Below are positions 22,853 to 50,220 of a DNA stretch of 64,000 nt, piece after piece (positions within the stretch are counted from its first letter, which is position 1; every line of letters begins with the position of its first letter). Where the stretch lies: positions 608,001 to 672,000 of the forward strand of contig CBDBHR010000029.1 in assembly GCA_965205865.1 (NCBI GenBank). Reading direction: 5' to 3'. This DNA is from a bacterium (GTDB lineage: Bacteria; SAR324; NAC60-12). The notes under the pieces are model-generated. The model saw only the letters and a list, made by a program, of their open reading frames with translations, ran no database searches and had not been told where the DNA came from. A program made the translations under genes and the position numbers.

Positions 22853-23146
22853 CCTAAATCCTGCAATTAGATGACAATCAAACATGGAAATGGTAATATA
22901 CTCAAATAGTTAACAGCAGAATCAACATTTTAAGAGATCACCATTTCCATGAAAAACAAAGGTAGCACAAGATCGGCAAGAACGACAGCAAAAAACATCC
23001 ATATCAGCCAGGGAGGCAGAGACCTGACCGCGCAAGCAGGCTTGATTCCGGTTGTCAAATTTTTCACAAAGAAGGGATTGTTTCAAAGACAGAGCAGACC
23101 GTAGATCATCAGCGTGGCGCCACGGGTCTTTATGACGCGCTGGACA
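22853..23146 (+). mobile_element. truncated IS1380 copy (left end only)
   Basis: TIR plus the start of the transposase; similarity stops at the AAAAAGGGGTCAGGCC motif. Confidence 0.88.
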
Positions 23147-23161
23147 AAAAGGGGTCAGGCC

Positions 23162-28359: not shown

Positions 28360-28496
28360 GATTGTCCTCCTCGATGAATTTTAAGCACGGATTACTTATT
28401 TGCCTTTCAATCCCGGTGCGTTCTGTTTCGTCCGGCTTGATATATGACTTGACTATCTATAAACAAATTTCCGTTCACCCGGCTCCTTGGGTGCGC

Positions 28497-29465: not shown

Positions 29466-29478
29466 GCCTTCACTCCCT

Positions 29479-30440: not shown

Positions 30441-30711
30441 ATTATTGAGCCTAACAAGTATTTCAAGTGACTATCCATCGCTTTTCGCTCCAGTCAATGG
30501 CTTTGGCATGGGTAGATACGTTAGCAGGGCCAAGCTCAGCGGTTTCGCCACCGACGTCCACTTGGTTGAAGGGAAACCAATAGCCAAACGAGTTAGAATC
30601 CCTGGTATCACCCCCAAATATCAAACTCAAGCGTACTTGAGAACCCCTCTGTCACTGAGGTCAGTGGCAGGCACTGTGGATGGTATCGGATATATCACAC
30701 AGGCGACGGGC

Positions 30712-30743
30712 ATTACAAGCCCATCCAGCGATGGGCTTGTAAT
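30712..30743. terminator. 14-bp perfect hairpin downstream of the SBP gene (terminator or mRNA-stabilising stem)
   Basis: ATTACAAGCCCATC-CAGC-GATGGGCTTGTAAT. Confidence 0.55.
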
Positions 30744-31095
30744 TTCATTCTCCTTGCAATGACACGAGAAGGCGGCTTCTAACGGCCCTTCTCTTCCTTC
30801 ACGTCTTGATAAACCCAGGTAAACCGCAATGGCGACGCAGGGCTATCAAGAAGGTCAATATTACTTTCTCCAAAGTAACCACCCACCCACGGCTGCCAGA
30901 AGGTATACTCGAAACCGGTAGGACCCCATACATTGAGGTGCTGGCCAATGAGGTACATATCGGCCTCTATAGCCCCATCCTTTAACTCTTCAATGGTAGT
31001 CGCCGCATTCACCTTCTCATCAATGAGGGCGTCATAGACTGGGTCTTTGAAACCGTGCCAGTTCCACGGGCCGTCTGTTACATAAAGTAATACTA

Positions 31096-32791: not shown

Positions 32792-33386
32792 TACTATAGG
32801 AACTACGGGATAGTTATTGCCTTTTAGGCCAACTACCATACCGTCATAGTTTTCCCCCCTGCAGCTAAGCATCGACATAAAAGTGGCAAACTCCACCTGA
32901 TTAATCTCCAGCTCGATGCCAATCTCAGCAAGGTAGGAGGCAACTATTTGGGCCCACCCTACGTCCAGACCGCCGACCCATGAGTCGTTGATATGGTAGG
33001 TGGTCTTAAATCTAATGCCATCGGCACCAGGGGTATACCCAGCCTCATCAAGGAGTGCCTTTGCCTTTTCCGGGTTGTAGGTATGCTCCGCCTGAAGCTC
33101 TTCAGGCCACTCATCAAACGGTTTAAACCACCCGATAACGGCTGGCCCGCCAAAGCCCCTAGGTGTGGGGTCGGTTTTACCCTTGTAGTAGGTCTGGGAA
33201 ACGGTGGGGATGTCAATTGCCATCTGCATCGCCTTGCGCACCCTGTTGTCATCAAAGGGTGGCTTTGTGACGTTCAGGGCCATATTTTGCTTGTTTTGGC
33301 CTAACGGTCCTGCCCTGAATTGGAGTTCAGGGCTGTTCTCTATTAGACCCTCTGCCACTTTGGGTTCAACACCAATTAATATATCA

Positions 33387-35082
33387 CCTAAATCCTGCAA
33401 TTAGATGACAATCAAACATGGAAATGGTAATATACTCAAATAGTTAACAGCAGAATCAACATTTTAAGAGATCACCATTACCATGAAAAACAAAGGTAGC
33501 GCAAGATCGGCAAGAACGACAGCAAAAAACATCCATATCAGCCAGGGAGGCAGAGACCTGACCGCGCAAGCAGGCTTGATTCCGGTTGTCAAATTTTTTC
33601 ACAAAGAAGGGATTGTTTCAAAGACAGAGCAGACCGTAGATCATCGGCGTGGCGCCACGGGTCTTTATGACGCGGTGGACATGGTCATTTTGTCGGTGGT
33701 CGGCATTGTTGGTGGCGCCCGTTCGATTCGTTCGATTGTGACAGTTTGGAACGACCGTGTTTTGAGTCGTGTGGCCGGTTGGCTGAGGATTCCGGATGAA
33801 ACCACATTCGGCCGGATACTGCGTACTTTCACACAGAAAAACATCAATGAGATGGAGAGCTTGAACCATCGGATTCGAGCCGGTATCTGGCGTAAGGCGC
33901 TTCGAAGTGGGACAAGCATCGTTGGGGTGTTACACTGTCTTGTGATTGACGTGGACTCCACTGTGAAAACGGCCTACGGCAAGCAGCAAGGAGTGTCTGT
34001 CGGATATAATCCCCACAAACGCGGTGCAGCTTCGTATCATCCTCTGCTGGCATTTTGCGCAGAGACAAAGGAGATTCTTCAGGGTTGGCTTCGTGATGGG
34101 AGTGCCTATACCAGCAATGGAGTCGTTGAATTCATGCGGCAACTTCTCGCTCACCTTCCAAATCGGACTCGCACTCTGTTTCGTGGAGACAGTGGTTTTT
34201 TTGTGGGGGATTTGCTGGATTTCCTCGAAGAACGAGGCCATGGCTATCTGATCAAGGTCAAACTCAAGGGGCTTGTCTCGTTGTTGGAAACCCAAAAATG
34301 GCAAAAAGTGAAGGGGCAGCCCGCTTGGGAAGGGTGTGAGTTTTCCCACCAATGTGAAACTTGGAGGAGGTCAAGAAAATTCATGGCCGTACGCAGGGAG
34401 AAAGAGGAGGAACTCAAAGGGATGGCCACCCTCTTTGAGATGAAGGAGTACGATTATTTTTGTTATGTTCTCACTGACGCGCTCACTCCCTGGCAGGCTC
34501 ACAAAGAGTATGGCCAAAGGGCGGTCGCTGAGACATGGATTGAGGAAGCAAAAAATCAAACTGCGCTGGCTCAGATTAAAACCGACGATTTTTGGGCCAA
34601 CAGTGCCTTGTTCCAATGCGCGATACTCGCTTACAACACGCTGCGCTGGATGGCCCTTTGTAGTGGTAACGCAATACTGCGCCGTTGGGAACCGGCCACC
34701 ATGCGCACCTATCTTGTCCGAATGGCAGGAAAATGGACGAGTGGCGCTCGTCAACAAAAACTGAGAGTTCCGGAAAGAACACTTTACAATGCTCAATGGG
34801 ATGCATGGGTCGCTGTTGGAGAGACCTGGATCCTTTGTTTCACTCCAGTGGATACATTTTGCTGAGATGTAGATTCCCAAATCCAGGGAGAAGTACGTCT
34901 TGAATCTTGTGCCCGCGAAAGTGGGTATCAGATCATCACAAAATATGACGATCTAATGGAGGGCGGAAAAACCTTTATGAGCAAGGACTGATGGAAATTC
35001 AACTCTCAAATCCTTTTTTTTAAAAAAACCTCTCAAAGAGTGGGGGGAAACTCAATCAAAATATTCAATTGCAGGATTTAGG
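33387..35082 (+). mobile_element. IS1380-family IS, copy C
   Basis: Same TIRs; target duplication TATCA. Confidence 0.95.
33483..34865 (+). CDS. IS1380-family transposase
   Basis: 460 aa, same translation as copy B. Confidence 0.93.
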   Translation: MKNKGSARSARTTAKNIHISQGGRDLTAQAGLIPVVKFFHKEGIVSKTEQTVDHRRGATGLYDAVDMVILSVVGIVGGARSIRSIVTVWNDRVLSRVAGWLRIPDETTFGRILRTFTQKNINEMESLNHRIRAGIWRKALRSGTSIVGVLHCLVIDVDSTVKTAYGKQQGVSVGYNPHKRGAASYHPLLAFCAETKEILQGWLRDGSAYTSNGVVEFMRQLLAHLPNRTRTLFRGDSGFFVGDLLDFLEERGHGYLIKVKLKGLVSLLETQKWQKVKGQPAWEGCEFSHQCETWRRSRKFMAVRREKEEELKGMATLFEMKEYDYFCYVLTDALTPWQAHKEYGQRAVAETWIEEAKNQTALAQIKTDDFWANSALFQCAILAYNTLRWMALCSGNAILRRWEPATMRTYLVRMAGKWTSGARQQKLRVPERTLYNAQWDAWVAVGETWILCFTPVDTFC

Positions 35083-36185
35083 TATCAAGTTTGCCCGAGC
35101 TTAACGCGGCTAGTCTTGTCCCCATGTCGGGCATGATCAATACTTCGGCTTCGTCAACATAGGGTAACCTGTTTTCCGGGTAACGGGGGTCATAGGCCCA
35201 GTAGTCGGGGTTCTTGGCGAAGGACCACGAGGAACCGTCGACATGGTCGATTATTATGAAAGGCCCGGTGCCGATGGCGTACCGCCAGTCGTTCATACTT
35301 CCGTACATGTCAATCGGTTCGCGCGGTACTATTAGCGCTACCTCCTCCTCGTATAAAATTGTCGTCAGCGCTATGGAGCTTGGCCTCGATAGCTTAAACT
35401 CAACAGTATATTCATCCGTAGCCGTTACGGATTCTATCGGTATATTGTCTATAGTAGCCGCCCTGTCAGATTGCCCAACCTCCTCAAACTCGCCAAGACC
35501 GGTTAGCCGCTCGAAGGTGTATTCGACATCTTTAGCCGTCAGCTCCCGACCGTTCACCGGAGGTTTATTCTGCCAGTGCACCCCTTGACGGATGTGAATG
35601 ATGATGGTGGTTGAGTCGGGCGTTTCCCAGCCTGTAGCAAGATGGGTCACCATAACCTCGAAGGGCATATACTTGCTCGTAAAGTCAAACATATCCCGGT
35701 CTACTTTGAAGTCACCGATAACCATCTTTTCTAAGAAGAAACCCGATAAGGCTCTGGCTTGGATGGCCTCGTAGTAGTCGGTAGTCTCAGTATCATCTAC
35801 CATAAAGGTGGTGATTTTGCCACCATACTGTGGCAGCCCTACCATCTTGCCGGTTGCCGGGTCTTTGACCATCTCGGCCGCAATGGCCGAACTACTCCAA
35901 AGGACGATCAGACCCAGGATGAGGGCTGGCAGGGTTGCACTGAAGGTTGATTTGCTTTTTTGATGATCCATCTTTTTCCTTTCGATTGCATGTTCAAAAT
36001 TAAGGATTGCTTTAAAACCTGCTTTCGGTCCCGAAAGCACGTTGTCGAGGATTTCTCTACCCATTGGGTCTCCTTCATTTTGGAGTGATTAAAAACCGAT
36101 CCATTGGCTCCAGGATGGGGCCATGAACCCTGAGCTTTCAATGCTCTTGAGGAATTTCCATTGGCTGAAATGAACTGAGGTGAAA

Positions 36186-36400
36186 TTTAAGGATCTCTTC
36201 CCCTCGGACTAGGCGTCGCTTCCGCGTACGGCCCCGTCGAGATAACATAAGGGGGGACAACCCAATGAATTTGGGGCTTAGGACTTAGAACTTGGAGCTT
36301 GGAGTTGGGTGCCGGGTGCTTGGATTTTGGAACTGTGACTGGGAACTAGGAACTAAGTGCAGGGTGCAGGAATTGTACTCTCATATTAACCTCGTGTCAA
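36186..36400 (-). promoter_or_regulatory. sigma70 promoter + heptamer tract + structured leader, copy 1 (upstream of the SBP operon)
   Basis: TTGACA-17bp-TACAAT, then period-7 YYCYAAG-like units, then core ATCTCGAC...GTCCGAGGGGAAGAGATCCTT. Confidence 0.7.
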
Positions 36401-36838
36401 GTTATTTTTTATGCTCGAAACAGACATGTCATCTTAATTTCAGACTTTCTGACGGTACATCCGAAAAACGAAAGATCGCATGATTGCCTTTCTGTCAGCC
36501 CAAGGCGATTTCGTTGAAAATTATCAAAAAAGAAATAGAAAAACAAGCCGAAATTCTTAAAAACCGTCAGCCCAAGGCGATTTCTTGAAAACGATCACAA
36601 AAGAACGATGATGGCAATATCCTGGTAGATTTCATTATCCCCTTCAGTATCCTCTCAATATAACAATGTTTAGAGGAGGTCAATCGATTTTTTTGCTCAT
36701 CTTAACTCCTCAGTGGCGAGTGCTTGTCTCATCCAGGACTTGATCCTCGCTCCTATTTGTATCAGTCTTTGAAAATAGCGAAGGCATCCTTCCAGCATAG
36801 TATAACAATATTTAGAGGAGGTCAATAGATTTTTTTGC

Positions 36839-37081
36839 TCATCTTAACTCCTCAGGGGCGAGTGCTTGTCTCATCCTGGACTTGATCCTCGCTGCTCTCT
36901 GTGTCAGTCCTTGAAAATACTGGGCAATCCTGCCCTTCCCGGAACGAAAAGCATGGGATTCAGAGCGCATCATTTCAAGGAGTGATGCGCACTCGGCCAA
37001 TTGAAAATCAGGGATATGGGAAAGTTGTCTCTGGTCCTCATTCAATTGATAAAATTCAGTCCACTTAACAAGAAGATCCAC
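36839..37081 (-). CDS. hypothetical protein whose 3' end is repeated nearby
   Basis: 80-aa ORF; its 3' end (ARIKSRMRQALAPEELR) recurs at ~36698-36780 and inverted at ~41026-41106. Confidence 0.4.
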   Translation of the reverse strand: MDLLVKWTEFYQLNEDQRQLSHIPDFQLAECASLLEMMRSESHAFRSGKGRIAQYFQGLTQRAARIKSRMRQALAPEELR

Positions 37082-37137
37082 CTGCGGAGCAAAGCGGAGT
37101 CAGGTGAAACGACTGGTTGGAAAATCCTGTCCCAAAC

Positions 37138-37755
37138 TCATCGATACTTTTTCTTTTTCTCGACAACGACTCCGATTATTCGGTATTGTGTATTCTTGCT
37201 CAGCTCAATGTCCTCATATTTAGCGTTCAATGGATGCAGTACCCTTACTTTTCCATATTTCTTTAATTGTTTGAAAGTTGCTTCCCACTCTTCATTACAA
37301 ACCACAATATAATCATTGTGCCCGGCCTTGAGATAAGGATTAATCACAATGATGTCTTCTTGATAAAATTCTGGTTCCATGCTATCTCCCCGAACCCGCA
37401 AAGCAAAAGTTCCTTTGGAGTCTGTCTCCATAAAATCCCCATCCTCCTGTTGGGAATTCGCGCATTCTCTCCAATGACCCGCCTGTGTCCATGCCAGGAT
37501 CGGGATCTGTTTGATCCTGCCTTTTTGTTCTGGTTTTCTCTCTACAGAAAGATAGCCTGTTTCTCTGAGAAATTCTTCAATTTCGATGCGATAAGTCTCC
37601 AAGAACCCCATCACCATCTCAAAGGAAGGCACACTGCTGCCGTTTTCTATGTCTCGGATGTGGGTATGAGAGACGCCTGAGAGCTGGGACGCTTGGCGCA
37701 GCGATAATCCTGCTTGATTCCTTTTCTCCTTTAAAAAGACTCCAATCGTTTTCAT
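37138..37755 (-). CDS. XRE-family HTH repressor with S24 (LexA/CI-like) peptidase domain
   Basis: LSLRQASQLSGVSHTHIRDIENG HTH; QAG cleavage site; GDSMEP (Ser) and TFK (Lys). Confidence 0.92.
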   Translation of the reverse strand: MKTIGVFLKEKRNQAGLSLRQASQLSGVSHTHIRDIENGSSVPSFEMVMGFLETYRIEIEEFLRETGYLSVERKPEQKGRIKQIPILAWTQAGHWRECANSQQEDGDFMETDSKGTFALRVRGDSMEPEFYQEDIIVINPYLKAGHNDYIVVCNEEWEATFKQLKKYGKVRVLHPLNAKYEDIELSKNTQYRIIGVVVEKKKKYR

Positions 37756-37758
37756 AGT

Positions 37759-37821
37759 GTAAATCATATCTTACTTTTTTATTGGGACCAATTTTATTTT
37801 AAATGTAAGATATATATTACA
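37759..37821. promoter_or_regulatory. two GTAA-N8-TTAC palindromes, candidate operators
   Basis: GTAAATCATATCTTAC at 37759 and TGTAAGATATATATTACA at 37804, in the divergent intergenic region. Confidence 0.55.
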
Positions 37822-37919
37822 ATCATATATTTCTCAAGTTAAAGGACAAATTTCATGACAATGACACAATTCGAATATTTGAAATGAAAGATATAATGAA
37901 CGAATAGGAGAATCATTCA

Positions 37920-38390
37920 TTGATCTATAAGCGACGTCATCCCGAAAAAACAGAATACTATCGCATTATTTAAGCCAATTTTGAAGCATTTGAAAGGAAC
38001 TATCCGGAACTCTTTGAGGAGAATTATGGCTACCTGAGGAAAGACATCATGCCCGCCATTTACGCCTATCTGGACTGTGGAATTCCAGAGAACGGTGTGG
38101 CAAGGGTGAGGTGTGAATGTGGAGAAGACTTCTTTGTGGCTTTTTCCTGCAAAAAAAGAATGATTTGTCCCAGTTGCTCGACAAAAAGGTCCATCCTCTT
38201 TGGCGAGAAAGTCCGAGAAATCGTCAAGCCGTTTCCTCATCTTCATGTGACCTTTACTATCCCCAAAATCCTCAGAGGCTATTTCCGCAGAAACAGAAAA
38301 TTATTGAAATTGCTGACACAAAGTGCGAATTTCGCCATCAAACAATATTTTCACGAAACGTTAAGCATCAAGGACGGATATACTGGCGGA
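37920..38390 (+). pseudogene. IS91-like transposase zinc-binding domain, with nonsense codon, truncated by IS256
   Basis: YKRRHPEKT..., YLDCG...RVRCECG...FSCKKRMICPSC, HVTFTIPK. Confidence 0.82.
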
Positions 38391-39773
38391 GAGTTATTGT
38401 CAAAAGTGGTGTTTGAGTTAAAAATCAAGCGGCAATCCGGATTTCAGGAATCACCTCGATTCCATCAGAGAATTGTACACCTTCAATCACCTTTGCCAGG
38501 TAATCAAAGCCACGTAACTTTCTCCAATTCTTTTCTGCGCATTGTCCCAGCTTAAACATCATGTGCAGCATCCCTTCACGATTGAGACAGCCCTTTGATC
38601 TTTTGGTTCTGTGCCTTATGGTACCAAAGGTGGATTCAATCGGGTTGCTGGTTCGTATACTCTGCCAATGTTTAGCAGGGAAATCATAAAAGGCCAGTAA
38701 CTCTTCACGATCTTGCTGTAGAGAAAGGGTGGCCTTTGGATATTTATCCTGATAGGTTTCAATGAAGAGTTCAAAGGCTTTCTCCGCATTGATTTTAGTC
38801 TCTGCCTGCCAGATTTCATGTATCGCCTCTTTAGCTTTAGGCTGTGAGCTTTTGGGCAGAGAGTTAAGGATATTAGCTGTTTTGTGTACCCAGCAGCGCT
38901 GATGACGTGTCTGAGGATATACTTCATCCATGGCAGCCCAAAACCCCATGGCTCCATCACCAATAGCTAACTGAGGAACATTCATGCCACGGCTTTTGAG
39001 TTTCAGCAGAACCTCTCTCCAACTCTGAGTGGACTCTCGTACACCATCTTCGATGGCTAAAAAACGTTTCTGACCTCTTTCGTTGACTCCAATGATAACC
39101 AATGCGCAAAGTTTATCCTTCTCGGATCGAAGACCTGAATAGATGCCATCTACCCAGACATAGGCCCAGCGGTCTTCATCCAGTGGTGCCTCCCGCCAAC
39201 GTTGATATTCATTTGCCCATTCACTCTTGAGGCGTGAGACAGTGCTGGCTGAGAGGCCCTGTGCATCATGACCGACCAGGACTTTTAATGCTTCCCCCAT
39301 CTCTCCGGTAGAAACACCTTTCAGGTACAGCCATGGTAATGCTGCTTCCAGGGTTCTGGTTTTTCTGACATAGGGCGGAACCAAGGCAGAACGGAAAGTC
39401 AGTGCCTTCCCATCTTTTGAACGTACCTTGGGGATGCGGACACTGACTGGGCCTATACCTGTCAGGATTTCTCGTTTTGGCAGGTAGCCGTTGCGTACCA
39501 ACGCAAGCCTTCCATCATCGGCTATGCGTTGATGCTGAGACAAATACTCGCTCAATTCTGTTTCTACTGCCTGACGTATTAATTGCTGTGCCCCGTCTCG
39601 TAACAACTCGTTCAGAACATCTGAAACACTCTCTTTATTATCGAACTCTAAAATGCTGTTCTTTCCCATAGTGGCATATCCTTTTTATTTGGTTGATTGA
39701 TATTCGAAAATTCTAGTCAACCAGATATGCCGCCTTTTTTCAATTCCTCAAACACCAGATTCGATTATAGCTC
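38391..39773 (-). mobile_element. IS256-family IS
   Basis: Imperfect TIRs GAGTTATTGTCAAAAGTGGTGTTT / GAGCTATAATCGAATCTGGTGTTT; no target duplication. Confidence 0.88.
38425..39669 (-). CDS. IS256-family (mutator-type) transposase
   Basis: RNGY, WVDG, IGDGAMG, QRCWVHK, RTSNPIES. Confidence 0.95.
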   Translation of the reverse strand: MGKNSILEFDNKESVSDVLNELLRDGAQQLIRQAVETELSEYLSQHQRIADDGRLALVRNGYLPKREILTGIGPVSVRIPKVRSKDGKALTFRSALVPPYVRKTRTLEAALPWLYLKGVSTGEMGEALKVLVGHDAQGLSASTVSRLKSEWANEYQRWREAPLDEDRWAYVWVDGIYSGLRSEKDKLCALVIIGVNERGQKRFLAIEDGVRESTQSWREVLLKLKSRGMNVPQLAIGDGAMGFWAAMDEVYPQTRHQRCWVHKTANILNSLPKSSQPKAKEAIHEIWQAETKINAEKAFELFIETYQDKYPKATLSLQQDREELLAFYDFPAKHWQSIRTSNPIESTFGTIRHRTKRSKGCLNREGMLHMMFKLGQCAEKNWRKLRGFDYLAKVIEGVQFSDGIEVIPEIRIAA

Positions 39774-40018
39774 ATTCCTTGTTTTCCATATCCCAATTTT
39801 CTTTCAAAAGGATGTTCAAACTTTGGAGAAATGACTCTCATAAAAGTATCTGTTGCTTCAAGAATCCGTTTCCTTTGGGCGACAAGATGATTATCTGTTA
39901 CTGTTTCTTGATAGACTGCTTCAGGGATATATACTATCTCAAAAAGCTGGAAAAGAATGTCTAGCTGATCAACACTACTCAGTGCTATAAGAGGACTTGA
40001 ATTGGAAATGACAATCAT
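39774..40018 (-). pseudogene. PIN-like (DUF3368-type) toxin truncated by IS256
   Basis: VISNSSPLIAL...LFEIVYIPEAVYQE; cut at LGYG by the IS end. Confidence 0.8.
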
Positions 40019-40290
40019 TTTTTGATTTGTTCCATCAAGTGTTGGAAGGAGGAATAACTTTCACGCAATTCATCAGGCGCCGCATTTATAAATGAAAGTC
40101 CTTTTTTCCCCAACAACTCGAAAAACTCAGTATATGTAATGCCTAGCAGTTGTGCTGCTTCCCCAAGGCTTAGATTTCCATATTGACGTTGTTCCATAAT
40201 AAAATCTTCATACATAGTTCGGCGAACATCCTCAATACTCTCAAATTGACTGACTATTTCATCGGGAATTTCTACTGTAATCTTTGCCAT
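40015..40290 (-). CDS. UPF0175-family antitoxin-like protein
   Basis: LSLGEAAQLLGITYTEFFELL HTH; overlaps the PIN gene start. Confidence 0.82.
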   Translation of the reverse strand: MAKITVEIPDEIVSQFESIEDVRRTMYEDFIMEQRQYGNLSLGEAAQLLGITYTEFFELLGKKGLSFINAAPDELRESYSSFQHLMEQIKK

Positions 40291-40359
40291 TGGCTCTTCC
40301 TTTTTGATTACCTGAATTGGTTGCTATTTTTCATCTTAGAGTACAGTCTGCTCTTTTAT

Positions 40360-40677
40360 TCAATCAAGAGTTTTTCACTTCTCGAATTTCTCGCTTTCGC
40401 AATTCTTGGTATGGTTGCTCGCAAGCTAGATCAAAGGGAATGGTCGGAATAGTGCTGAAGAATAGCACGGTTCCATCAGCTTCTGGTAGGCATGAACTCT
40501 GCGTTCTCCCTCTGCGCGTCGTGCCAGCACCGCTAAACATCCTCGCAGCATCTCTTCAACGGTAATAATGCTTACTGCCAGCGAATCTGGGGAAACTGCT
40601 GCAAAACGAATCTTTAGTGTGGGATGCCCTCTCTCCAGTAGGCTGAGATGATCGGTATCAAAGATCCGTTCAACCAT
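40360..40677 (-). pseudogene. VapC/PIN toxin, frameshifted; antitoxin remnant upstream (~40674-40800)
   Basis: FDTDHLSLLERG, VSIITVEE.LRG; frame lost near 40470; 3' end approximate. Confidence 0.75.
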
Positions 40678-41405
40678 TATGTCCCATTCTCTGTTCGTTC
40701 GCGGTTGATTTCCTCGATGAAATCGTCGAAATCCGGGTCATCCGCCGATCGTCCGAAGGCCTTGAGCCATGGATGAGAGGATTCCAACCCTGGAATCTCT
40801 ATATCGCTTCTCCAGTGCGGTATTTTCGATCTGATGATCTCAATTATGTCTCAATCGTGCTATGATTGGCAAGTTTTCATTCTTCTCTGTTTCTTCGGCG
40901 GCTATCTTTTATTGGACGCAAAAATTCGCAGATATCCACTGCATCGTTATAGATGCTTGCCTCTCTTTCAAAAAAAGCGCTCTCTTCACTCAAGAGAATT
41001 TCTAAATGATTGATGCACTTGCTCCAATTTCAAGGATTGACACAGAGAAGAGCGAGGATCAAGTCCAGGATGACACAAGCACTCGCCCACTGAGGAGTTA
41101 AGATGAGCAAAAAAATCTATTGACATCCTCTAATATTTTATATAGACAGGATACTGAATGGGATCATGAAATTCACCAGGTTTTTGCCATCATAATCTCC
41201 CATTGGTCGAAATGACACGTTTTTTCTTTAAATCACGGGAAATCTCAAAGAGCCATGAAATCTACCAGGTTTTTGCCATCAAAGTTAATGAGTTGCCGTA
41301 TTTAAAGAAAAGCTTGAGAAACATTTCCAGAACGAGTAAACATATTTCCAATTTCCAAGGACAAAAGAGCAATTCAGAGAGTCACCATATTAAAAATAAT
41401 AAAGA

Positions 41406-41670
41406 TTGACAAAAGGGTAAAATGAGAGTAAGTTCAAGCACTCAGTTCTAAGTTCCCAGTCACAATTTCCAAGTTTCAAATCCCAAGTTCATTGGGTTCT
41501 ACACCGTGGTGTCATCTCGATGGGGCCGTCGGTACGCCCGATACGCGCACGGTGGTCCGCATACGGCGCATCGGCGTACCGGAAGCGGCGCCTGGTCTTC
41601 AGGGAGGGATCCTTAAGATTCCTCGTTCCAAATTCCAAGCCCCAAGTCCTACGTTCCAAGTTTCAGGAAC
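41406..41670 (+). promoter_or_regulatory. sigma70 promoter + heptamer tract + structured leader, copy 2
   Basis: TTGACA-17bp-TAAGTT; heptamers; core with an extended GC-rich hairpin; more heptamers after the core. Confidence 0.7.
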
Positions 41671-41695
41671 AGAAGGGCAAAAAAGGGGTCAGGCT

Positions 41696-42387
41696 GTGCG
41701 CCAGGAAAGCTGGCAAGAAATAGAGAGTGAAAGTCTCTTACTCGGTAAGGCAGTAACGACCCGCTGAGTCCCCGAGTCATGAGTGGTTATTCGCAAGGAT
41801 AGGCGCTAAGCGTTGACAGGGGAGAACATAGGCTCGGTATTGAGCTCCGAAATCATAGTTTCAGGCGCTGACCTTGTGGTCTGGTGGAAAAGGCAATATC
41901 AACCGAAGGCCTTAGCGTGAGTCTCGGCTGAGCCTGGCGGAGTCAAAGACCCGGTGCATGTGTGGAAGTTTCTTGATCGGAACCTGGGAGATCCTGAAGA
42001 CGACTGTCAACATTCTATTGGTAGTCGGATCGGGAAAATTAATAAATAACCCCGATATCTACGTCTTCAGGAAGTCGGACAAGTTCGTAGTAGCGATGAA
42101 GCGGCGAACAATGAGATAATTTGCAGAGAGTAACAATGCAAAGGAAATCAACGGAGCCTGTGGAGCAAAGGGACTTGGCTGAGAGGAATTCTGCTTGCCC
42201 TCCTGTGTTCGGAACTCAGAGGCCGGTAAAATCAGAGAGCGGTTTAAGCAGGGTGCGCCAAACGGCAACGTTTGAGCGTCTGACTCGAAGCAGGAGCCGG
42301 ATGCGTTAGCAGCGCACGTCCGGATCTGTACTGGAGGAATGACGAAAGGTGGCTGGAAACCACTATAAGTCAGTTCTTTACGGTGAC
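41696..42387 (+). mobile_element. ORF-less group II intron (692 nt), deletion derivative of 23162-25118
   Basis: GTGCG...GTGAC ends; ORF replaced by the junction GCGCCAAACGGCAACGTTTGAG. Confidence 0.92.
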
Positions 42388-42459
42388 TTTGATTAAATTG
42401 TATTTTGTTAAATTCTATGGTTAGCATTGCTCCAGACTTGAGAGCAACCGAGAGGAAAA

Positions 42460-43304
42460 ATGGCAAGAAAACGAAGAGTTCATTAACCGGGAGCGGTCTA
42501 TCATGTGATGCTTCGTGGCAATGGGGGGCAGGGCTTTTTTTTGATGATGATCGTTTTTATTTTGGAGAGTTACTTTTGGAGGGAGTGGCGCGTTTTGAAC
42601 ATCGTATCCACGGGTTTTGTTTTATGGGCAATCATGTTCACTTGGTGGTTCAAGTGGGTGTGATTCCGCTGTCTCGCATTGTTCAAAATGTGTCATTTCG
42701 TTATACTCGCTGGATCAACAAAAAACAAAAACGGATGGGAAATTTGTTTCAGAGGCGCTATAAAGCGATTTTAGTGGATGCCGATCAGTATTTATTAGAG
42801 TTAATTCGCTATGTTCACCTGAATCCGATTCGGAACGGGCTCGTCAACGATCCGAAACAATATTTTTGGTCAAGCCATGCCGTGTATACGGGAAAGAGAA
42901 AGATGCCTTGGGTTCATACAGAGTGGGTTCACGCTCAATTTTCCAGGCACTCAGGTCATGCTCGACGGATGTATCGTCGCTATGTTGAGGAAGCTATGGA
43001 GGACACCCTACCCCCCGAGTTCGAAAAAGGGAATAAAGAAGGAAGGATTTTGGGAGATGATCACTTTGCGGAAAGTGCATTACAACAAGCGGGAGAGCCC
43101 ATTCACCAAACATTGGAGTTGGAAGTCTGGGGAGAGCGTTGTGGTCGAGATGGTGTCACCTTAAGCAATGCCATTCAAATTTTGCTAAAACGCACCAAAA
43201 CAGACAAAGATTTGGTAAACAGAATGAAAGAAATTGAGGAAAAACTATTAATCTCTTTCGGGTCTAACTCGCCGCAGCCGCTCAGCGTACCGTTGCTGCG
43301 TTGA
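42460..43304 (+). pseudogene. REP-associated tyrosine (Y1/HUH, RAYT-type) transposase with an early stop and frameshift
   Basis: True start MARKRRVH*PGAVYHVMLRGNG, frame change in a T run at ~42535; MGNHVHL (HUH), LFQRRYKA, RYVHLNP, WSS. Confidence 0.88.
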
Positions 43305-43435
43305 AAAAAAGATAATCCGACAAAATACTCCGCTCGAGCGAAGCGAAAGTCGAGCCTCAACGAGAGAGCATGCTTCAGGATAGTTTATTTGAATAATGAA
43401 ACGTCAAATGAAATAATAAAAGGCCTGACCCCATT

Positions 43436-43810
43436 TTGCGCCATATCCTGATTCTCCATGTCCTGCCCAATATTATGGCGCCGATCATCATCATCTTCTC
43501 GATCAACATTGGCGGCGTCATCATTGCCGAGGCGTCGCTGAGCTTCCTCGGATTCGGGTTACCCCTCAAGATTCCCAGTTGGGGAGGAATGCTCAGCCGG
43601 GAAGGGCGTCAGTTCATGGAGATTGCCCCCCGGCTGGCGCTCTGGCCGGGGCTTTGTCTGACTCTTGTCGTCTACTCCCTCAACATGTTCGGCGACGCGG
43701 TGAGAGACCTGCTCGATCCCCGGTTGAGGGGCAGTGGGGGCCGTTATAGCACCACGATGAAACGCAAACGAGGCCTCCTGGCCCGACTGATCAACCCTTT
43801 CAATGGGTAA
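43436..43810 (+). pseudogene. C-terminal fragment of a DppC-like permease
   Basis: Begins mid-protein (HVLPNIMAP) right after CTGACCCCATTT. Confidence 0.88.
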
Positions 43811-43917
43811 TCAGAAAAATGAAAATAGCCTTTGCTCTTTCAAAGTAGTAGGGTTAAAATCATACTGCTCGATACAGCGGATCACTCAGCACTTTAAAAT
43901 CTATAAGGAGTATATGT

Positions 43918-44130
43918 ATGCCTACTTACATAACCCCGCTTGATACAAAAGAGGATGCCCTTGAAGTCGTCGGCGGTAAAGGCCGATCGCTTGCCAAATT
44001 GGCAAACACCGGTTTTCAAGTCCCTGGCGGTTTTCAGATAACCACGGCGGCTTATCGGCGTTTTGTCGCTGATAACGGCCTGCAGGAACAAATCATTGAT
44101 TTAGCCAAGCCCGCTGTCGTCGAGGGGAGA
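43918..44130 (+). pseudogene. N-terminal fragment of a PEP/pyruvate-binding (PPDK/PEP synthase-like) protein
   Basis: AAGGAG RBS; VGGKGRSLAKL...VPGGFQITT; similarity lost at an AT-rich palindrome at ~44127-44168. Confidence 0.8.
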
Positions 44131-44257
44131 GCTTTGATAAAATATTTTAAATTTTATGCGAAAGGCTCCTCAGTGAACTGCGGGAACGTGGTAAGTGAAC
44201 TCACCATGAGACAGACCCCGGTGCTGTGAGCGCAAACCTTAATCTTGAGTAAGACAA

Positions 44258-45100
44258 ATGGAAGCAACACTTGAACTCAATCAATACCTTTATGACCTCT
44301 AGGGCTACCTCGTCATCGAAGACGTGCTCACTAAGTTGCAGGTCGAGGAATTAAATGCGCTCATTGACGAGCGATTTCCCCCCTTTCCGGACAACTGGCG
44401 CGAGATCGTCCAAAAAGATCCTCAGGAAGCCATTCGCTTTTATCGATTTGGGATGGCCGGCGGTTCGCATGAGACCGGGCCGGGCTTTCTGGAGTGGGGC
44501 CAATCGTTTCTCGATTTAGTCGATCATCCGGTCGTCATGCAAATCCTGCGTTTGCAGTTAGGGGATTGTTTTCGCTTAGATCGGATCTTTGGGATGCGCA
44601 TGGAAAAGGGGATGCCGAACGGACGTTTGCATTCGGACTATGGGCACTCGGAACCCTATACCCGTGCCCAACCGAGTCAGTATTACGTTCAGCCAGCCTA
44701 TCAAGCGTTGCATGGCTTTGGTGTGGTGGTGTTCAATTTAACAGACAGTGGGCCCGAGACTGGAGGCTTGCGACTCATTCCAGGAAGTCACAACAGCCAC
44801 TTCAAGCTACCGGAGCAGATTCGCAACGAAGAATATGCCGACGTCGTGATCAGCCCGCGAGCGCCAGCAGGGAGTGTTACAATATTTTCAGAAGCAACCA
44901 CCCACGGCACAGCTTCATGGCAAACCGATCATGAACGCCGGACACTGCTCTACAAATACTGTGCGTCCCAATTGACCTATGCGCGCACCCGGGTCACAGC
45001 CCCCGAAGGACTCCTCTTGAGCAAACGTCAGCAACGCCTTTTAGAATCACCTGCAGCGGCCCATTCGTTCTTTCCCTCACTGTTCGACGAGAAAAGATAG
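44258..45100 (+). pseudogene. phytanoyl-CoA dioxygenase (PhyH) family protein with in-frame TAG at 44300
   Basis: YLYDL*GYLVIEDVL, LHSD, GGLRLIPGSH, THG, RRTL. Confidence 0.8.
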
Positions 45101-45184
45101 TCTCTGAAACAACCCGTCGAATATCTGAAAGAATGAGTGTGATATCCTCGACATTAAAGGAAGGGAGCATTCTTTTGAGCAAAT

Positions 45185-45562
45185 GTGTATTTTCTGGCAG
45201 CCAGGGCCGTGGGCGTCCCCATGTACCAAATCCTCTTCCGGCATGTGCTGCCCAACATCATGGCGCCCATGATCGTCATCTTCACCGTGACCATTGGCGA
45301 CGTGATCATTGCCGAGGCCTCCCTGAGCTTCCTCGGTCTTGGGCTTCCCCCCGATGTCACCAGCTGGGGGGGGATGCTCAGTTGGGAAGGACGCCGATAC
45401 ATGGAGAGGGTCCCGGCGCTGGCTCTCTGGCCCGGGCTTTCCCTGTGCATCGTTGTCTGGGGCACCAACTTGTTCGGCGACGCGTTGAGAGACCTGCTCG
45501 ACCCCAGCCTGAGGGGTGGTGTCGGGCGCTTTGGAGCCGCGAAGATGAAGAAGGCTCTATGA
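45185..45562 (+). pseudogene. C-terminal fragment of a DppC-like permease
   Basis: YFLAARAVG...RHVLPN...GDALRDLLDP; N-terminal part absent. Confidence 0.85.
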
Positions 45563-45651
45563 AATAACCTAAGGACGCCAACCTCCAGCGCTGCGGCCGG
45601 TCACCGGTGACGCAGTCCAAAACATTATCATTTAGAAAGGTAGGGATACTC

Positions 45652-46563
45652 ATGACTGATTTTAAAGCAATCGCCTCCTCGCTCGAGGAACAGGGCTTCT
45701 GCGTTATCCCGGAATTCCTGAGCCGTGAAGAGATCGACTTCCTCGTGGAAGAATTCGATGCAAGCCCAGACTATGGTCCGGAATCCGTGGCCACAGCGCG
45801 AATTGGGCGAAAAGAAGCCTTCGCAAAAATGCGTCCTCGCATGGAAGCGTTCGCCCAGGAGATCACCGGAGCCAAGGCCGCGCTCTATCAAATGCAATAT
45901 TTCCAAACTCCAGTAATCAACCACCCCTTTCATCAGGATCACGATCAATTTTTCATGACGGAGTACAATCGGACAAATCTCAATTCCTGGATTCCGTTGG
46001 TCAAGCCCTCGCGCACCGAGTGGGGACTGCACCTGATTCCCTTTGATCGGCTTGGCGAAAATTCGCCGCGACTCTTCAACCTCTGTCGGCGCTCAGGCGC
46101 GAGTAGACTGCTCTCGCTTCGTGGTGGGGGGACCTTTTACATCTCCGACTGGAGCGAGGTCACCTGGATCGAGGAGGGCCTCGAAGTCGAGGAGGTCATG
46201 GAGACGCCAGAGGTGGGCCCCGGCGACATGCTGCTGATGCGCTTCAACGTAATCCACGCGACACAGAGCAAGAATAGGAAGTGGATTCACCCAATCGATG
46301 CTACGCCTATGCCCGCCGCGACACAGACGACCGAGGATCGGCGCATCGCTGTGGCGTTACGCACTTGCGATCCGGAGACGCCGATCGACTGGCATCGGGT
46401 GGCCGCCAGTCACACACCGGTAAAAATTCTTGATCTCGTGACCGGAAGCCAGCAATCGGACCGGCATAGGTTGAATTTCACGGCTTTTCGACACAACCGG
46501 GAAAACAACTTCGGCACCACTCTGGGGGACATCGTGCCGACCCTGACTGGTGTGCGGGACTGA
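45652..46563 (+). CDS. PhyH-like 2OG-Fe(II) dioxygenase
   Basis: EQGFCVIPEFL, FHQD, WIPL, PGDMLL...IHAT. Confidence 0.75.
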   Translation: MTDFKAIASSLEEQGFCVIPEFLSREEIDFLVEEFDASPDYGPESVATARIGRKEAFAKMRPRMEAFAQEITGAKAALYQMQYFQTPVINHPFHQDHDQFFMTEYNRTNLNSWIPLVKPSRTEWGLHLIPFDRLGENSPRLFNLCRRSGASRLLSLRGGGTFYISDWSEVTWIEEGLEVEEVMETPEVGPGDMLLMRFNVIHATQSKNRKWIHPIDATPMPAATQTTEDRRIAVALRTCDPETPIDWHRVAASHTPVKILDLVTGSQQSDRHRLNFTAFRHNRENNFGTTLGDIVPTLTGVRD

Positions 46564-46587
46564 AAATCCGGGGACAGTTACTAATTT

Positions 46588-47523
46588 TTAAATGCTGGGA
46601 TCGGAATCTTTATCTTGGAGGAGAACACGGAGCCGTTCGACTTCCGCAAGAGCTTTTTCTTCTCTTTGCAAGGCGTCTTCTTTTTGTTGCCGCTCTTTTT
46701 CTTTTTGTTGTCGCTCTTTTTCTTCTCTTTGCAAGGCGTCTTCTTTTTGTTGTCGCTCTTTTTCTTCTCTTTGCAAGGCGTCTTCTTTTTGTTGTCGCTC
46801 TTTTTCTTTTTGTTGTCGCTCTTGTTGGAAGCTTTTCAGGAGGAACGGCTGGTAGAGGGGATCATCGATTAATTTTTCAAAGGCCACCTGTTTTTCTAAA
46901 TCCTGAAGACGAAATGCGAATCGATCCAAAACCCTGGAATGAATCACGCCGGGCTCTTTGCTCTTCATCCTTTCATAAACCCCCTGCTCATTGAGAGCAT
47001 AGAAGGCGGTATGCTTGCGCAAACGGTCTAATATATAATATTCCGCTACCCCCGCTTTGGCGTATTCTTCTTTTTTGTGAATCGTATCCCGTTCCACCTC
47101 CGAGGGAGTCGAGTCGGATAAAAACTCTATACAGAGGTCACACACCCCATGAAACGAACGATCCAACTGTTTGGCCTCGACAGGATTGGAGTGAAGAATC
47201 ACGGCCAGATCCGGTTTGCGAATACTCACCTTTTTCTTTCCCAGTTCCAAACGAAAGCCCATTTCCAATGCCATGATTCGCCCTTGAGGGAAGACGGTTA
47301 AATATTCTTCTAATAAGCGCAAGAACCATTGATACAGGGAGATGCTTAAAAAATCTGGCATGGGCTTTTCCTCCAAGAGTCCATTGTTCCATTCATATTG
47401 ACTATCCGGGTGTTCATAGTACGTCTTCCAATACTCTGCCTCACTCACCCTGAGGGGCTCCCTGGCAGATGGAGGAAACCGTGTAGGAGTGGTGTTGTTT
47501 TTGATGGATTCTAAAGAAGCCAT
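46588..47523 (-). CDS. Uma2-family endonuclease with a repetitive coiled-coil tail
   Basis: YEWNNG, RKPDL, DLCIEFLS.S, KKEEYAKAGVAEYYILD; tandem ERQQKE/DALQREEK repeats. Confidence 0.88.
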   Translation of the reverse strand: MASLESIKNNTTPTRFPPSAREPLRVSEAEYWKTYYEHPDSQYEWNNGLLEEKPMPDFLSISLYQWFLRLLEEYLTVFPQGRIMALEMGFRLELGKKKVSIRKPDLAVILHSNPVEAKQLDRSFHGVCDLCIEFLSDSTPSEVERDTIHKKEEYAKAGVAEYYILDRLRKHTAFYALNEQGVYERMKSKEPGVIHSRVLDRFAFRLQDLEKQVAFEKLIDDPLYQPFLLKSFQQERQQKEKERQQKEDALQREEKERQQKEDALQREEKERQQKEKERQQKEDALQREEKALAEVERLRVLLQDKDSDPSI

Positions 47524-48012
47524 GAGGTCCTCAATGGGAATGAGAAGTGAAATTTGTGGTCTTTTTAACAGGATAACATAGTGTGAGGAGGACTGCAATT
47601 TTCCATTTTTGTAATTCGGAGGCGCATTCATCGGTGAGTTGCTATATTCAAACAAAAAAAGCTTGACCCCTTCTGAAGCCTCAAAGAGGGTTAAAGAATT
47701 TCTGCTGGTCTTTTGTTTTCTTTTTTGATAATTTTCAACGAAAATGCCTTTAGTTGAAGGTTTTATTTCAATTTCGCTACTTATTTAGCCGAAAGTCATG
47801 TAAAATATTATATTCTCCCCAGAGGATTTTTAGAAACTGTCAACTGGGAATGGAAAAGTGCAAAAAATGTTGACTTCTGTATCTTAACATGAAAAAGTCT
47901 TTTCGTTGATCATCAGAAGACACTCCTGAATGAGTCGCCCTACTTAAAAAAAGTTTGACAAACGTTTGCGGAGCGATTATAGTTTCTACCAAGGATAAAA
48001 GGGCAAATGCGA

Positions 48013-49764
48013 CCCTGCAATTAGCAGTGTACCATCAAACATGGAAATGTAATAGTACTTGAATAGTTAACCCAGTTTCAACATTTTAACCTAGATCACC
48101 AATTGACCATGAAAAACAAAGAGTAGCGCAAGATCGGCAAGAACGTTTTTTTAAAAAAATCCATTTGAGCCAGTTGATTTCCATCAGTCCTTGCGCAAGC
48201 AGGCTTGATTCCGCCCTCCATTAGTCGTCAAATTTTTTCACAAAGAAGGGATTGTTTCGCGGGACAGAGCAGACCGTAGATCATCGGCGTGGCGCCATTT
48301 GGGTCTTTATGACGCGGTGTATCCATGGTCATTTTGAAACGGTGGTCGGCATTGTTCTGGCGACCCATGCGATTCGTTCGATTGTGACAGTTTGGAACGA
48401 CCGTGTTCTTGAGTCGTGTGGCCGGTTTTTGAGGATTCCGGATGAAACCACATTCGGCCGGATTTTACTGCGTACTTTCACACAGAAAAAGTCGCATGAG
48501 ATGGCCGAGCTTGAACCATCGGATTCGAGCCGGTATCTGGCGTAAGGCACTTCGAAGTGGGACAAGCATCGTTGGGGTGTTACACTGTCTTGTGATTGAC
48601 GTGGACTCGCACTGTGAAAACGGCCTGTTGGCAAGCCAAGGAGTGTCTGTCGGATATAATCCACACAAACGCAGGTGCAGCTTCGTCAATCATCCTCTGC
48701 TGACCGCATTTTGGCCATACTCAAAGGAGATTCTTCAGGGTTGGCTTCGTGATGTGAGTGCCTATACCAAAAATGGAGTCGTTGACTCCTTCATCTCAAA
48801 GAGGGTGCGGCAACTTCTCGAGTCACCTTCCAAATCGGACTCGCACTCTGTTTCGTGGAGACAGTGGTTTTTTTGTGGGGGACCATTGCTGGATTTCCTC
48901 GAAGAACGAGGCCATGGCTATCTGATCAAGGTCAAACTCAAGGGGCTTGTCTCGTTGTTGGAAACCCAAAAATGGCAAAAAGTGAAAGCCCGCTTGGGAA
49001 GGGTTTGAGTGATTAGCCACCAATCGTGAAACTTCGAGGAGGTCAAGAAAATTCATGGCCGTACGCAGGGAGAAAGAGGAGGAACTGTCTCAAAGGGATG
49101 GCCACCCTCTTTGAAGATGAAGAAGTACGATGAATTTTTGCTGGTTATGCACTCATCACTGAAGCTCACTCCCTGGCAGGCTCACAAAGAGTATGGCCAA
49201 AGGGCGGTCGCTGAGACATGGATGAGGAAGCAAAAAATCAAACTGCGCTGGTGGGGATTAAATCCGACATTTTTGGGCCAACAGTGCCTTGTTGCTTGCG
49301 CGATAGGCTCGTTTTCAACACGCTGGAGTCCACGTCCCTTTGTAGTGTAAACGCAATACTGCGCTTGGGAACCGGCCACCATGCGCACCTATCTTGTCCG
49401 AATGGCAGGAAAATGGACGATGGCGCTCGTCAACAAAAACTGAGAGTTCCGGAAAGAACACTTTACAATGCTCAATGGGATGCATGGAATCGCTGTTGGA
49501 GAGACCTGGAACCTTTGTTTCACTCAATACATTTTGCTGAGATGTAGTTCCAAATCCAGGGACAAGTACGTCTTGAATCTTGTGCGCCACCAAGCGGGTA
49601 TCAGACCATCGACAAAATATGACGCGTCTAATGGAGGGCGGAAAAACCTTTATGATCAAGGACTGATGGAAATTCAACTCTCAAATCCTTTTTTTAAAAA
49701 AACCCGGAATCAAAGAGGGGTCAGGTCTCTGCCTCAATGGCAAAATATTCAATTGCAGGATTTA
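48013..49764 (+). mobile_element. garbled IS1380 copy, probably a consensus artefact mixing both orientations
   Basis: Dense indels; patches of the opposite-strand IS sequence are interleaved. Confidence 0.75.
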
Positions 49765-49885
49765 TCTTGGTACTATAGTTTCTTCCAAGGATAAAAGGGC
49801 AATATGCGACCCTTCACTTTGCAGTCGTACCATCAAGAGGACATGAGTTTGAAATTAACCCGTTTCAAATATAAAATAAAAAAAA

Positions 49886-50085
49886 TTGACAAGAGGTTAA
49901 AATGAGAGTACGATCCCGGCACCCGCGCACCTAGCCCCTAGTTCCAAGTTTCCATTCTCAAGTTCTCAGTTCCAAGCACCAAGCACCAAGTTCCCCATCC
50001 CAAGTTCTACCCCCTTATCTCATCTTGACGGCGACGCCCAGTCCGAGGGGAAGAGATCCTTCAGATTCCTCGTTCCCCGTTCCAG
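49886..50085 (+). promoter_or_regulatory. sigma70 promoter + heptamer tract + structured leader, copy 3
   Basis: TTGACA-17bp-TACGAT; heptamers; core ATCTTGAC...GTCCGAGGGGAAGAGATCCTT. Confidence 0.7.
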
Positions 50086-50220
50086 GATTGGAACGTCACG
50101 GGGGAATTTGGACATCATCGACGCCTGAGTGCGTCTTTTTTTCATGCATTTCTTATCAGGAGCAGCCTATGGTGAAATGAAGTAAGCCGAAAATGAATTT
50201 TTATTCCTTCAACCTAAATA

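Follow-up and report, generated by a model that had tools for sequence, protein, structure and literature searches.

What, if anything, is the function of a non-coding arrangement that occurs three times within 14 kb of one bacterial genome, each time as a promoter followed by a run of seven-nucleotide repeats and a conserved core? The question is raised by a 64,000-nucleotide stretch of a SAR324 genome (NAC60-12 in the GTDB lineage; assembly GCA_965205865.1, contig CBDBHR010000029.1, positions 608,001 to 672,000), here called the window, to which all coordinates below refer. A first-pass annotation made from the letters alone had described the arrangement and suggested a leader, a riboswitch or a small RNA (sRNA), and all three copies were found at the places it gave: copy 1 at 36400 on the minus strand, copy 2 at 41406 and copy 3 at 49886, both on the plus strand. 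The repetition of promoter, tract and core is confirmed, and together they form a clearly delimited, unclassified unit whose status as a regulator is that of a candidate only. We tentatively read it, with rather less than even confidence, as a lineage-specific 5′ leader that attenuates transcription and onto whose repeat tract Rho, or a protein reading NAG triplets set four nucleotides apart (NAG-N4), would load. Within this reading, the unit was inherited or copied among paralogous operons for peptide/nickel-type (SBP_bac_5) ATP-binding cassette (ABC) transporters, and its most likely mode of control over them is premature termination of transcription.

The order of parts is constant in all three copies, running from an A-rich run and promoter through the heptamers and the core to a tail that is again heptamer-like and has hairpins at its end, although the order of the individual heptamers differs from copy to copy. 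Each part also singles out the same three loci. The promoter block TTGACANNAGGKTAAWATGAGAGTA has exactly three matches in the window at three or fewer mismatches, and the 3′ core pattern CGCCYRGTC..GGGRRG(N)GATCCTT likewise has exactly three, with none expected in either case (100 shuffles for the promoter block). A covariance model built from the three cores, as the first-pass annotation had proposed, and run on both strands of the window with filters off, recovered the three copies at 80-103 bits, followed by a next-best match of 14 bits (E 0.22). Heptamer-dense stretches were found at the three copies and nowhere else in the window. A fourth copy was therefore absent from the 64 kb by promoter-block, core-pattern and covariance-model searches. 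No conserved open reading frame (ORF) crosses the unit, in keeping with the earlier judgement that none was credible: the stop-to-stop frames of the copies share neither a start codon nor a frame. A leader-peptide attenuator was rejected on the same grounds, since the frames differ between copies and copy 3 has no counterpart of the ATG found within the core of copy 1.

The most distinctive part of the unit is its tract. Phased by hand, it comprises 31 in-phase heptamers of consensus YYCCMAG, C-rich and G-poor: 13 in copy 1 (36270..36359, minus strand), 7 in copy 2 (41439..41487, plus strand; phasing and lag-7 period) and 11 in copy 3 (49928..50004, plus strand). The first-pass figure of 9-16 heptamers per copy holds for copies 1 and 3 and is too high for copy 2. 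Self-identity at a lag of 7 nt is 0.57-0.61 (z 5.0-7.9) and is likewise high at lags of 14 and 21, while four AG dinucleotides at 7-nt spacing occur five times in the window (1.44 expected), four of these within the tracts. Conservation depends on the position within the heptamer. The consensus base is kept at C3 in 27/31 units, at C4 in 24/31, at A6 in 29/31 and at G7 in 24/31, and at positions 1, 2 and 5 in just 17-18 of 30-31 units (17/31 at position 2). AG ends 23 of the 31 units, with runs of four to five consecutive AG-type units in each copy; the base before it is A in 18 units, C in 9 and T in 4, never G, and a single G lies outside position 7.

Predicted folds leave this sequence essentially unfolded, with minimum free energies (MFEs) of 0 to -8.1 kcal/mol that do not differ from those of shuffles (copy 1, -8.1 kcal/mol, z +0.26; copy 3, -1.8 kcal/mol), and no long-range pairing involves the tract in the predicted folds of the full leaders, where it stays mostly unpaired. 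Using descriptors of Rho utilization (rut) sites, namely C-minus-G skew and spaced YC dimers, taken from PMC6144790, we found that the tracts of copies 1 and 3 rank 5th and 3rd for C-minus-G among ~128,000 windows of 78 nt, and that chains of YC dimers joined by 9-13-nt linkers reach a length of 8 in copy 1 and 7 in copy 3 (99th percentile of the window, 7), against 4 in copy 2. The resemblance to a Rho-loading site seen in the first-pass annotation thus stands for copies 1 and 3, by skew, YC chains and lack of folding, and fails for copy 2. At the 3′ end of the copy 1 tract, the last heptamer and an inverted copy of it would form a small hairpin, CCCAA-AUUCA-UUGGG (36261..36275, minus strand; fold and alignment), of a type present also in copy 2 and absent from copy 3.

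Upstream of the tract, each copy has an A-rich run followed by TTGACA, a 17-nt spacer ending in ATGAGAG (13 invariant positions) and a -10 hexamer. In copy 1, an UP-element-like A-rich tract read from the sequence (36401..36415, minus strand) lies directly upstream of the -35 box of a TTGACA-17-TACAAT promoter with the conserved spacer AGGTTAATATGAGAG (36372..36400, minus strand; 11/12 consensus matches). Copy 3 likewise has an A-rich run and a near-consensus sigma-70 promoter, TTGACA-17-TACGAT (49886..49914, plus strand; 10/12). The A-rich run is seen in all three copies in the sequence and alignment. The promoter layout described earlier is thereby upheld for these two copies; the -10 box it assigned to copy 2 is not. 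There, the alignment shows an intact TTGACA and spacer followed by TAAGTT (41406..41434, plus strand), which matches 3/6 -10 consensus positions by hand count and is not listed by the promoter scan, and the -10 region looks like the product of a deletion that joined GAGAGT to the tract. Promoter scans of the three copies returned no conserved promoter on the complementary strand, and in copy 1 no other promoter between the unit and the Shine-Dalgarno (SD) sequence and ATG of the following gene. We infer that copies 1 and 3 are transcribed from these promoters.

The position of copy 1 connects the unit to a transporter operon. Alone among the three, it is still followed by a gene, and it lies directly upstream of an SBP_bac_5/permease operon whose first gene (35078..36075, minus strand; SD AAGGAG at 36070-36075, ATG at 36064) encodes the N-terminal 328 aa of a binding protein; the permeases (28497-30440) and a beta-lactamase-family gene (27112-28359) follow. 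The first-pass description of copy 1 as the leader of this operon is right as to position; the binding-protein gene itself is split by two copies of a 1.7-kb insertion sequence (IS), with its C-terminal part at 32774-33400. About 125 nt separate the core from the start region, and within them a terminator-like hairpin of 10 pairs, G-U included, is followed by GGUUUUU (36091..36129, minus strand; -14.7 kcal/mol, z -0.40), ending ~15 nt before the SD sequence; a simple terminator scan did not call it. The intergenic region of copy 1 is immediately preceded, on its own strand, by a gene for a LexA-like repressor (HTH_3 and Peptidase_S24; 37138-37767, minus strand).

Cargo is thus clear for one copy of three, probable for copy 2 and absent for copy 3. 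In copy 2, heptamers resume 3′ of the core in a second tract accompanied by a GTTCC/GGAAC hairpin (41615..41679, plus strand), and the unit is cut at 41680 by a repeat unit (family D4) that carries a group II intron, with GTGCG at 41697. The intron, an IS200-like gene, a permease fragment and PhyH-family genes lie downstream; the permease fragment, 1.8 kb away beyond the intron and the IS200-like insertion, is 71-79% identical to the permeases of the other operons. Copy 3 continues into a tail (50062..50142, plus strand; -29.8 kcal/mol, z -2.33) containing AGATTCCTCGTTCC, which it has in common with copy 2, a hairpin at 50062-50110 and an intrinsic-terminator-like site, GACGC-loop-GCGTC followed by T7 (50120-50142; fold and terminator scan). 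The next IS starts at ~50200, and IS remnants flank the copy on both sides. Copies 2 and 3 had both been described as cut off, which is true of copy 2, by the intron-bearing repeat, and not of copy 3, whose own hairpin and terminator-like site come before the IS. By eye, the 5′ arm of this terminator (CGACGCCTGAGT, 50118-50131) resembles a core segment (CGACGCCCAGT, 50031-50043), so the 3′ arm could pair with either of them, a possible alternative-pairing switch.

Three paralogous SBP_bac_5/permease operons lie within 40 kb (8688-14716, 27112-36064 and 43436-46563). They differ in their accessory genes (GNAT, beta-lactamase family and PhyH dioxygenases), and all three are disrupted by IS elements, the intron or frameshifts; at 8688-14716, IS elements have removed the 5′ end of the operon, where a leader would be expected. 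Comparing the unit with these genes gives a measure of how well it has been kept. Pairwise identity of the copies is 67-82% in the promoter block, 69-81% in the 5′ core and 71-97% in the 3′ core, alongside 65.5-78.7% for the permease genes and no nucleotide alignment at all between the two binding-protein genes compared. Since this non-coding DNA keeps pace with the best-conserved coding DNA of the operons, the comparison suggests constraint on the promoter and core.

The core itself follows the consensus ATCTYGAYG, a hairpin of variable length, then CGCCYRGTC-N-GGGARG(A)GATCCTT. In copy 1 (36189..36243, minus strand; 103 bits in the covariance model), it reads ATCTCGAC, a GGAA-capped hairpin, then CGCCTAGTC-CGAGGGGAA-GAGATCCTT. 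Copy 2 (41514..41614, plus strand; 90 bits, -47.2 kcal/mol) has at the variable position a GC-rich extended hairpin of ~60 nt, an insert unique in the window, while the short core of copy 3 (50022..50061, plus strand; 80 bits) reduces it to GGC-GAC-GCC. Variation of the inner stem from a few pairs through a capped hairpin to a long GC stem was thus correctly described in the first-pass annotation, and this hairpin of 3, ~9 or ~25 pairs, always at the same site between invariant flanks, is the best hint that the core may adopt a structure in RNA. The helices proposed earlier (ATCTY/GRGAT, GAY/GTC and GGGC/GCCT) comprise 12 pairs, all of which can pair in all three copies wherever the alignment has bases. 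The closing helix ATCTY/GRGAT does keep its pairing through G-U changes in 3/3 copies; the MFE fold, though, leaves it unused and closes the core by CUYG/CGAG instead. A further closing, CCCCUU/GAGGGG, fits copies 1 and 3 as CUYG/CGAG does; it would form a pseudoknot with ATCTY/GRGAT and has 3/6 pairs broken in copy 2. This copy, the source of most of the core variation, looks like a decaying one.

These parts suggest how the unit might work as an attenuating leader. The strong sigma-70 promoter, with its A-rich upstream tract, would start an RNA of ~230-300 nt whose first 50-100 nt form an unstructured, C-rich and G-poor run of YYCCMAG heptamers; the GC-rich hairpin core would come next, and then a hairpin and U-run ahead of the ribosome-binding site. 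The tract would load a trans-acting factor, which would be Rho or else an oligomeric protein that binds single-stranded RNA and recognises the in-phase C..AG positions. Whether RNA polymerase continued past the hairpin and U-run into the operon would then depend on the occupancy of the tract together with the folding of the core. As to the factor, the C-richness, absent structure and YC spacing favour Rho as the reader of the tract, whereas the strict phase, the good retention of G7 and an A6 that hardly varies speak for a protein that reads the repeats, either of the HutP/TRAP design or of a cold-shock type in which each protein binds one heptamer. A more specific proposal, which we regard as quite doubtful, is that the tract is the binding array of a hitherto undescribed oligomeric RNA-binding regulator reading C-N2-AG every 7 nt over 7-13 units and that, together with the core, it constitutes a new protein-dependent attenuation (or sponge) system. 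If true, this regulator would be a larger relative in design of HutP and TRAP, and the system would control ABC transporters of the peptide/nickel type in a little-sampled lineage.

Several findings weigh against a functional leader, and many of them would be expected of its serious competitor, a neutral relic: paralogous intergenic DNA with an ordinary promoter, a degenerate heptanucleotide microsatellite born of slippage and a palindromic core that plays no role in RNA, the likeness of the copies being due to duplication and gene conversion in a decaying, IS-rich region. All three associated operons are broken (by IS elements, by the intron-bearing repeat, or with IS fragments only), so any function may be historical. 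Copy 2 has lost its -10 box, and its tract is short and not rut-like, with a YC chain of 4 and no place among the top 12 windows for skew. Only three copies are known, all in one IS-ridden stretch of one genome, where neighbouring non-coding modules upstream of the promoter show a still higher identity (85-93%) and occur as a tandem duplication at copy 1. This shows that the region has recombined, and some of the similarity could stem from recent recombination instead of selection. Across the 12 core pairs of the three sequences there are no compensatory changes and three one-sided G-U changes, a comparison with no statistical power for covariation as only three sequences are available (pairing shuffles gave identical values in 500/500 runs), and the folding energies of the cores (z -1.15, -1.58 and +1.00 for copies 1, 2 and 3) are no better than those of shuffles. 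With rival closings in addition, the claim of a conserved structured RNA core was not borne out, and the case for structure in the core is weak.

Searches beyond the window likewise found no relatives. Scanning one genome for each of 185,579 species with the strict core pattern CGCCYRGTCN{2,6}GGGRRGN{0,1}GATCCTT returned four loci in four unrelated metagenome-assembled genomes, which we judge to be chance matches (~10 expected for a pattern of this strength, by rough estimate rather than computation); all four are without a heptamer tract and without the 5′ half of the core, and the sequence around three of them appears to be coding. The three copies of the window were not themselves returned, so the source genome is not in this collection. 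Blastn of copies 1-3 against plasmids and of copy 2 against phages gave short chance matches or none, the translated leader frame matched no spurious ORF elsewhere in the protein collection, and HutP, TRAP, CsrA, Hfq and cold-shock families were not found among 101 ORF translations from the window (a few of these scanned twice). Intergenic heptamer arrays of unknown function have precedents, of which the cyanobacterial STRR repeats are one. Others have been described in further bacteria (in the account given in PMC4679880). Set against a neutral origin are the uneven conservation of the heptamer, from 29/31 at A6 down to 17/31 at position 2, and the near-absence of G outside position 7, neither of which would follow from uniform decay of a microsatellite; the retention of promoter and core at 67-97% identity while the binding-protein genes diverged past nucleotide alignment; and the order of promoter, tract, core and hairpin, unchanged in 3/3 copies despite reshuffled heptamers. 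On balance, we consider a neutral relic unlikely.

Other readings give the unit a function of a different kind. Were it a riboswitch, the core would be a metabolite or ion aptamer, possibly pseudoknotted through CCCCUU/GAGGGG crossing AUCUY/GRGAU, with the hairpin and U-run as expression platform and the tract as an accessory. The length-variable hairpin between invariant flanks, the invariant purine-rich or GC-rich single-strand stretches (GGGA, CGCC and GTC), the terminator-like elements behind copies 1 and 3 and the place of copy 1 ahead of a transporter operon would all suit such a design. It is nonetheless decidedly unlikely, given three mutually exclusive closing helices that fit equally well or badly, a pseudoknot helix that drops half of its pairs in copy 2, a copy 3 without most of the inner stem, the lack of compensatory changes, the unremarkable core z-scores and the failure of the strict pattern to find a copy in the species genomes. 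The Rfam search suggested in the first-pass annotation also places the unit in no known RNA family: at gathering thresholds, release 15 yielded three group II intron hits in the whole window and none at the unit, and four relaxed searches, with the three copies and the region upstream of copy 1, gave chance matches only (E 2.4-9.3, 4-16 bits). A stand-alone sRNA is suggested mainly by copy 3, which would be a complete gene for a ~220-nt RNA whose 11 motifs could titrate an RNA-binding protein, copy 1 being the same RNA with read-through. Its promoter matches the consensus at 10/12 positions behind an A-rich run, a GC stem and T7 lie 234 nt past the start of the -35 box, and no gene follows. 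Many repeats of a short motif in unstructured RNA are a known sponge design, as in CsrB/RsmZ and CrcZ, which titrate their partner proteins in this way. Copy 1, however, lies directly ahead of an SD sequence and ATG with no promoter between, the cargo missing from copy 3 may be a secondary loss to the flanking IS elements, the motif is unlike known sponge motifs, and no partner protein was found among the window ORFs scanned; we hold an sRNA or sponge to be quite unlikely. A sponge for CsrA/RsmA in particular was rejected, because the sense tracts have one G outside position 7 and GGA occurs only on the complementary, untranscribed strand. Of the options first proposed, then, a leader or sRNA remains the most economical, and the riboswitch loses ground for want of compensatory changes and through its rival closings.

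A small mobile or promoter-bearing repeat resembling a miniature inverted-repeat transposable element (MITE), which would have landed three times in the region, would be at home in a window full of mobile DNA, which harbours members of at least four IS families, three copies of a group II intron and other repeats, and could account for three copies in 14 kb. The copies, however, are 67-97% identical rather than near-identical, the plasmid and phage searches gave nothing beyond chance matches, and no terminal inverted repeats occur at equivalent positions, only unrelated inverted matches of 10-15 nt in each region. Their homology reaches several hundred bases upstream of the promoter and fades gradually, without sharp borders, into upstream modules that differ between loci. 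In the absence of an inverted repeat common to the three copies we rejected this very improbable explanation, and the attenuating leader is the reading retained below.

The upstream DNA has features of its own. At a distance of 200-500 nt, copies 1 and 2 are preceded by a second conserved module without coding function, 85-93% identical and present in tandem at copy 1 (36608-36788 and 36801-36916 on the minus strand at copy 1; 41012-41193 on the plus strand at copy 2). It contains GAGGAG-N6-ATG with a 6-codon frame overlapping A7, and a promoter-like TTGACC-N17-TACTAT facing the leader, and had no Rfam match in the search of the region upstream of copy 1. Further shared blocks pair 36502-36561 (minus strand) with 47691-47750 and, by eye only, 41300-41375 with 47940-48030. 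The region upstream of copy 3 is split by an IS remnant (48031-49705), from which it follows that the original intergenic region there resembled those of copies 1 and 2. Elsewhere in the window, there are three copies of the 1.7-kb IS (DDE_Tnp_1_4 transposase, 460 aa), 100% identical to one another (9271-10973, 31095-32792 and 33386-35088), two of them in the same binding-protein gene 2.3 kb apart, with the remnant at 48031-49705 as an older, degraded copy; the identical copies point to very recent bursts of transposition. The three group II introns (RF02005, 152-168 bits; 20359-20581 on the minus strand, 23196-23418 and 41730-41952 on the plus strand) share 15-17 nt of identical sequence upstream of their GTGCG 5′ end (41680-41696 = 23146-23160); the mobile unit may thus begin upstream of the intron, or else the three copies occupy one and the same target sequence. 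HIP1 sites were not found. Finally, at least seven tandem 21-bp repeats (46632-46826), which would encode a 7-aa repeat, lie inside an ORF with a Uma2-family domain (46588-47655, minus strand).

How, then, does the candidate leader compare with systems already described? The literature searches made for heptanucleotide or heptamer leader repeats returned analogies only and no description of this unit. The TAACTGA heptamers of Beggiatoaceae, Cyanobacteria and Bacteroidetes are intergenic tandem repeats upstream of genes as well, for which cold-shock proteins, each binding one heptamer, are among the candidate binders (PMC4679880). As reported there, they are exact, mostly in 2-6 copies and a few nucleotides from the start codon (169 loci), whereas the heptamers of the unit are degenerate, stand at least 200 nt from the start codon, immediately follow a promoter and are accompanied by a conserved core. 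In Haemophilus influenzae, the exact (ATCTTTC)n repeat of the hmw 5′ untranslated region is transcribed, phase-variable and acts in cis on expression, pairing with a downstream G-rich arm in a long hairpin that is cut by RNase III (PMC12721329). Here too a heptamer repeat occupies a putative 5′ untranslated region; unlike the hmw repeat as described in that source, it is degenerate, and a long hairpin of this kind was rejected because the predicted full-leader folds leave the tract mostly unpaired. We treat both heptamer systems as analogies rather than relatives.

Closer in design are leaders and sites that are read through short motifs in single-stranded RNA. TRAP, a ring-shaped oligomer, controls attenuation at the trp leader by binding (G/U)AG triplets separated by 2-3-nt spacers. 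The unit resembles its sites in having many in-phase NAG triplets in a putative leader RNA, and differs in a spacer of 4 nt and in A, C or U as the base before AG; with that spacer, and with G never in this position, a TRAP-type site was rejected. Like rut sites, the tract is a C-rich, G-poor and unstructured stretch of ~80-100 nt with regular YC dimers in a putative 5′ leader (PMC6144790). The combination of C>G skew over ~78 nt, YC dimers with 9-13-nt linkers for six subunits and little structure, as given in that source, was found in copies 1 and 3 only, the tract of copy 2 being too short. Nor do rut sites need a strict period or a conserved AG, whereas A6 and G7 are among the best-kept positions of the unit.

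A further counterpart is HutP, whose model RNA carries three XAG triplets with a U4 spacer, the A and G being specifically recognised, and whose Bacillus subtilis hut leader/terminator holds two XAG-rich sites of three triplets each around the GC stem of the terminator, joined by a linker of 12-17 nt (PMC2425495). The unit shares with it NAG triplets at a 4-nt spacer (period 7), more than three in a row in each copy and with 23/31 units ending in AG, in RNA predicted to be single-stranded 5′ of a GC-rich stem; in copy 2, the tracts on both sides of the core also recall the second XAG region of HutP 3′ of the stem. Measured against the same description, the unit has 7-13 heptamers rather than 3+3 triplets, pyrimidine-rich spacers with a conserved C, a GC-rich core of 40-101 nt that is not itself followed by a U-run, and an ABC transporter rather than histidine catabolism as its cargo. 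Two XAG sites flanking a terminator at a 12-17-nt linker were not found, a clear 3′ tract being present in copy 2 only and the terminator-like hairpins being located farther 3′ than the core. A functional unit would extend, by a new design, the short list of leaders, such as those of HutP and TRAP, that are read through repeated short RNA motifs or, alternatively, would provide a built-in and strictly periodic Rho-loading site. In either case, the design would be tied to nutrient-uptake operons in a lineage without close relatives among public genomes, where the best full-length matches to the binding protein in the protein collection reach only ~55% identity.

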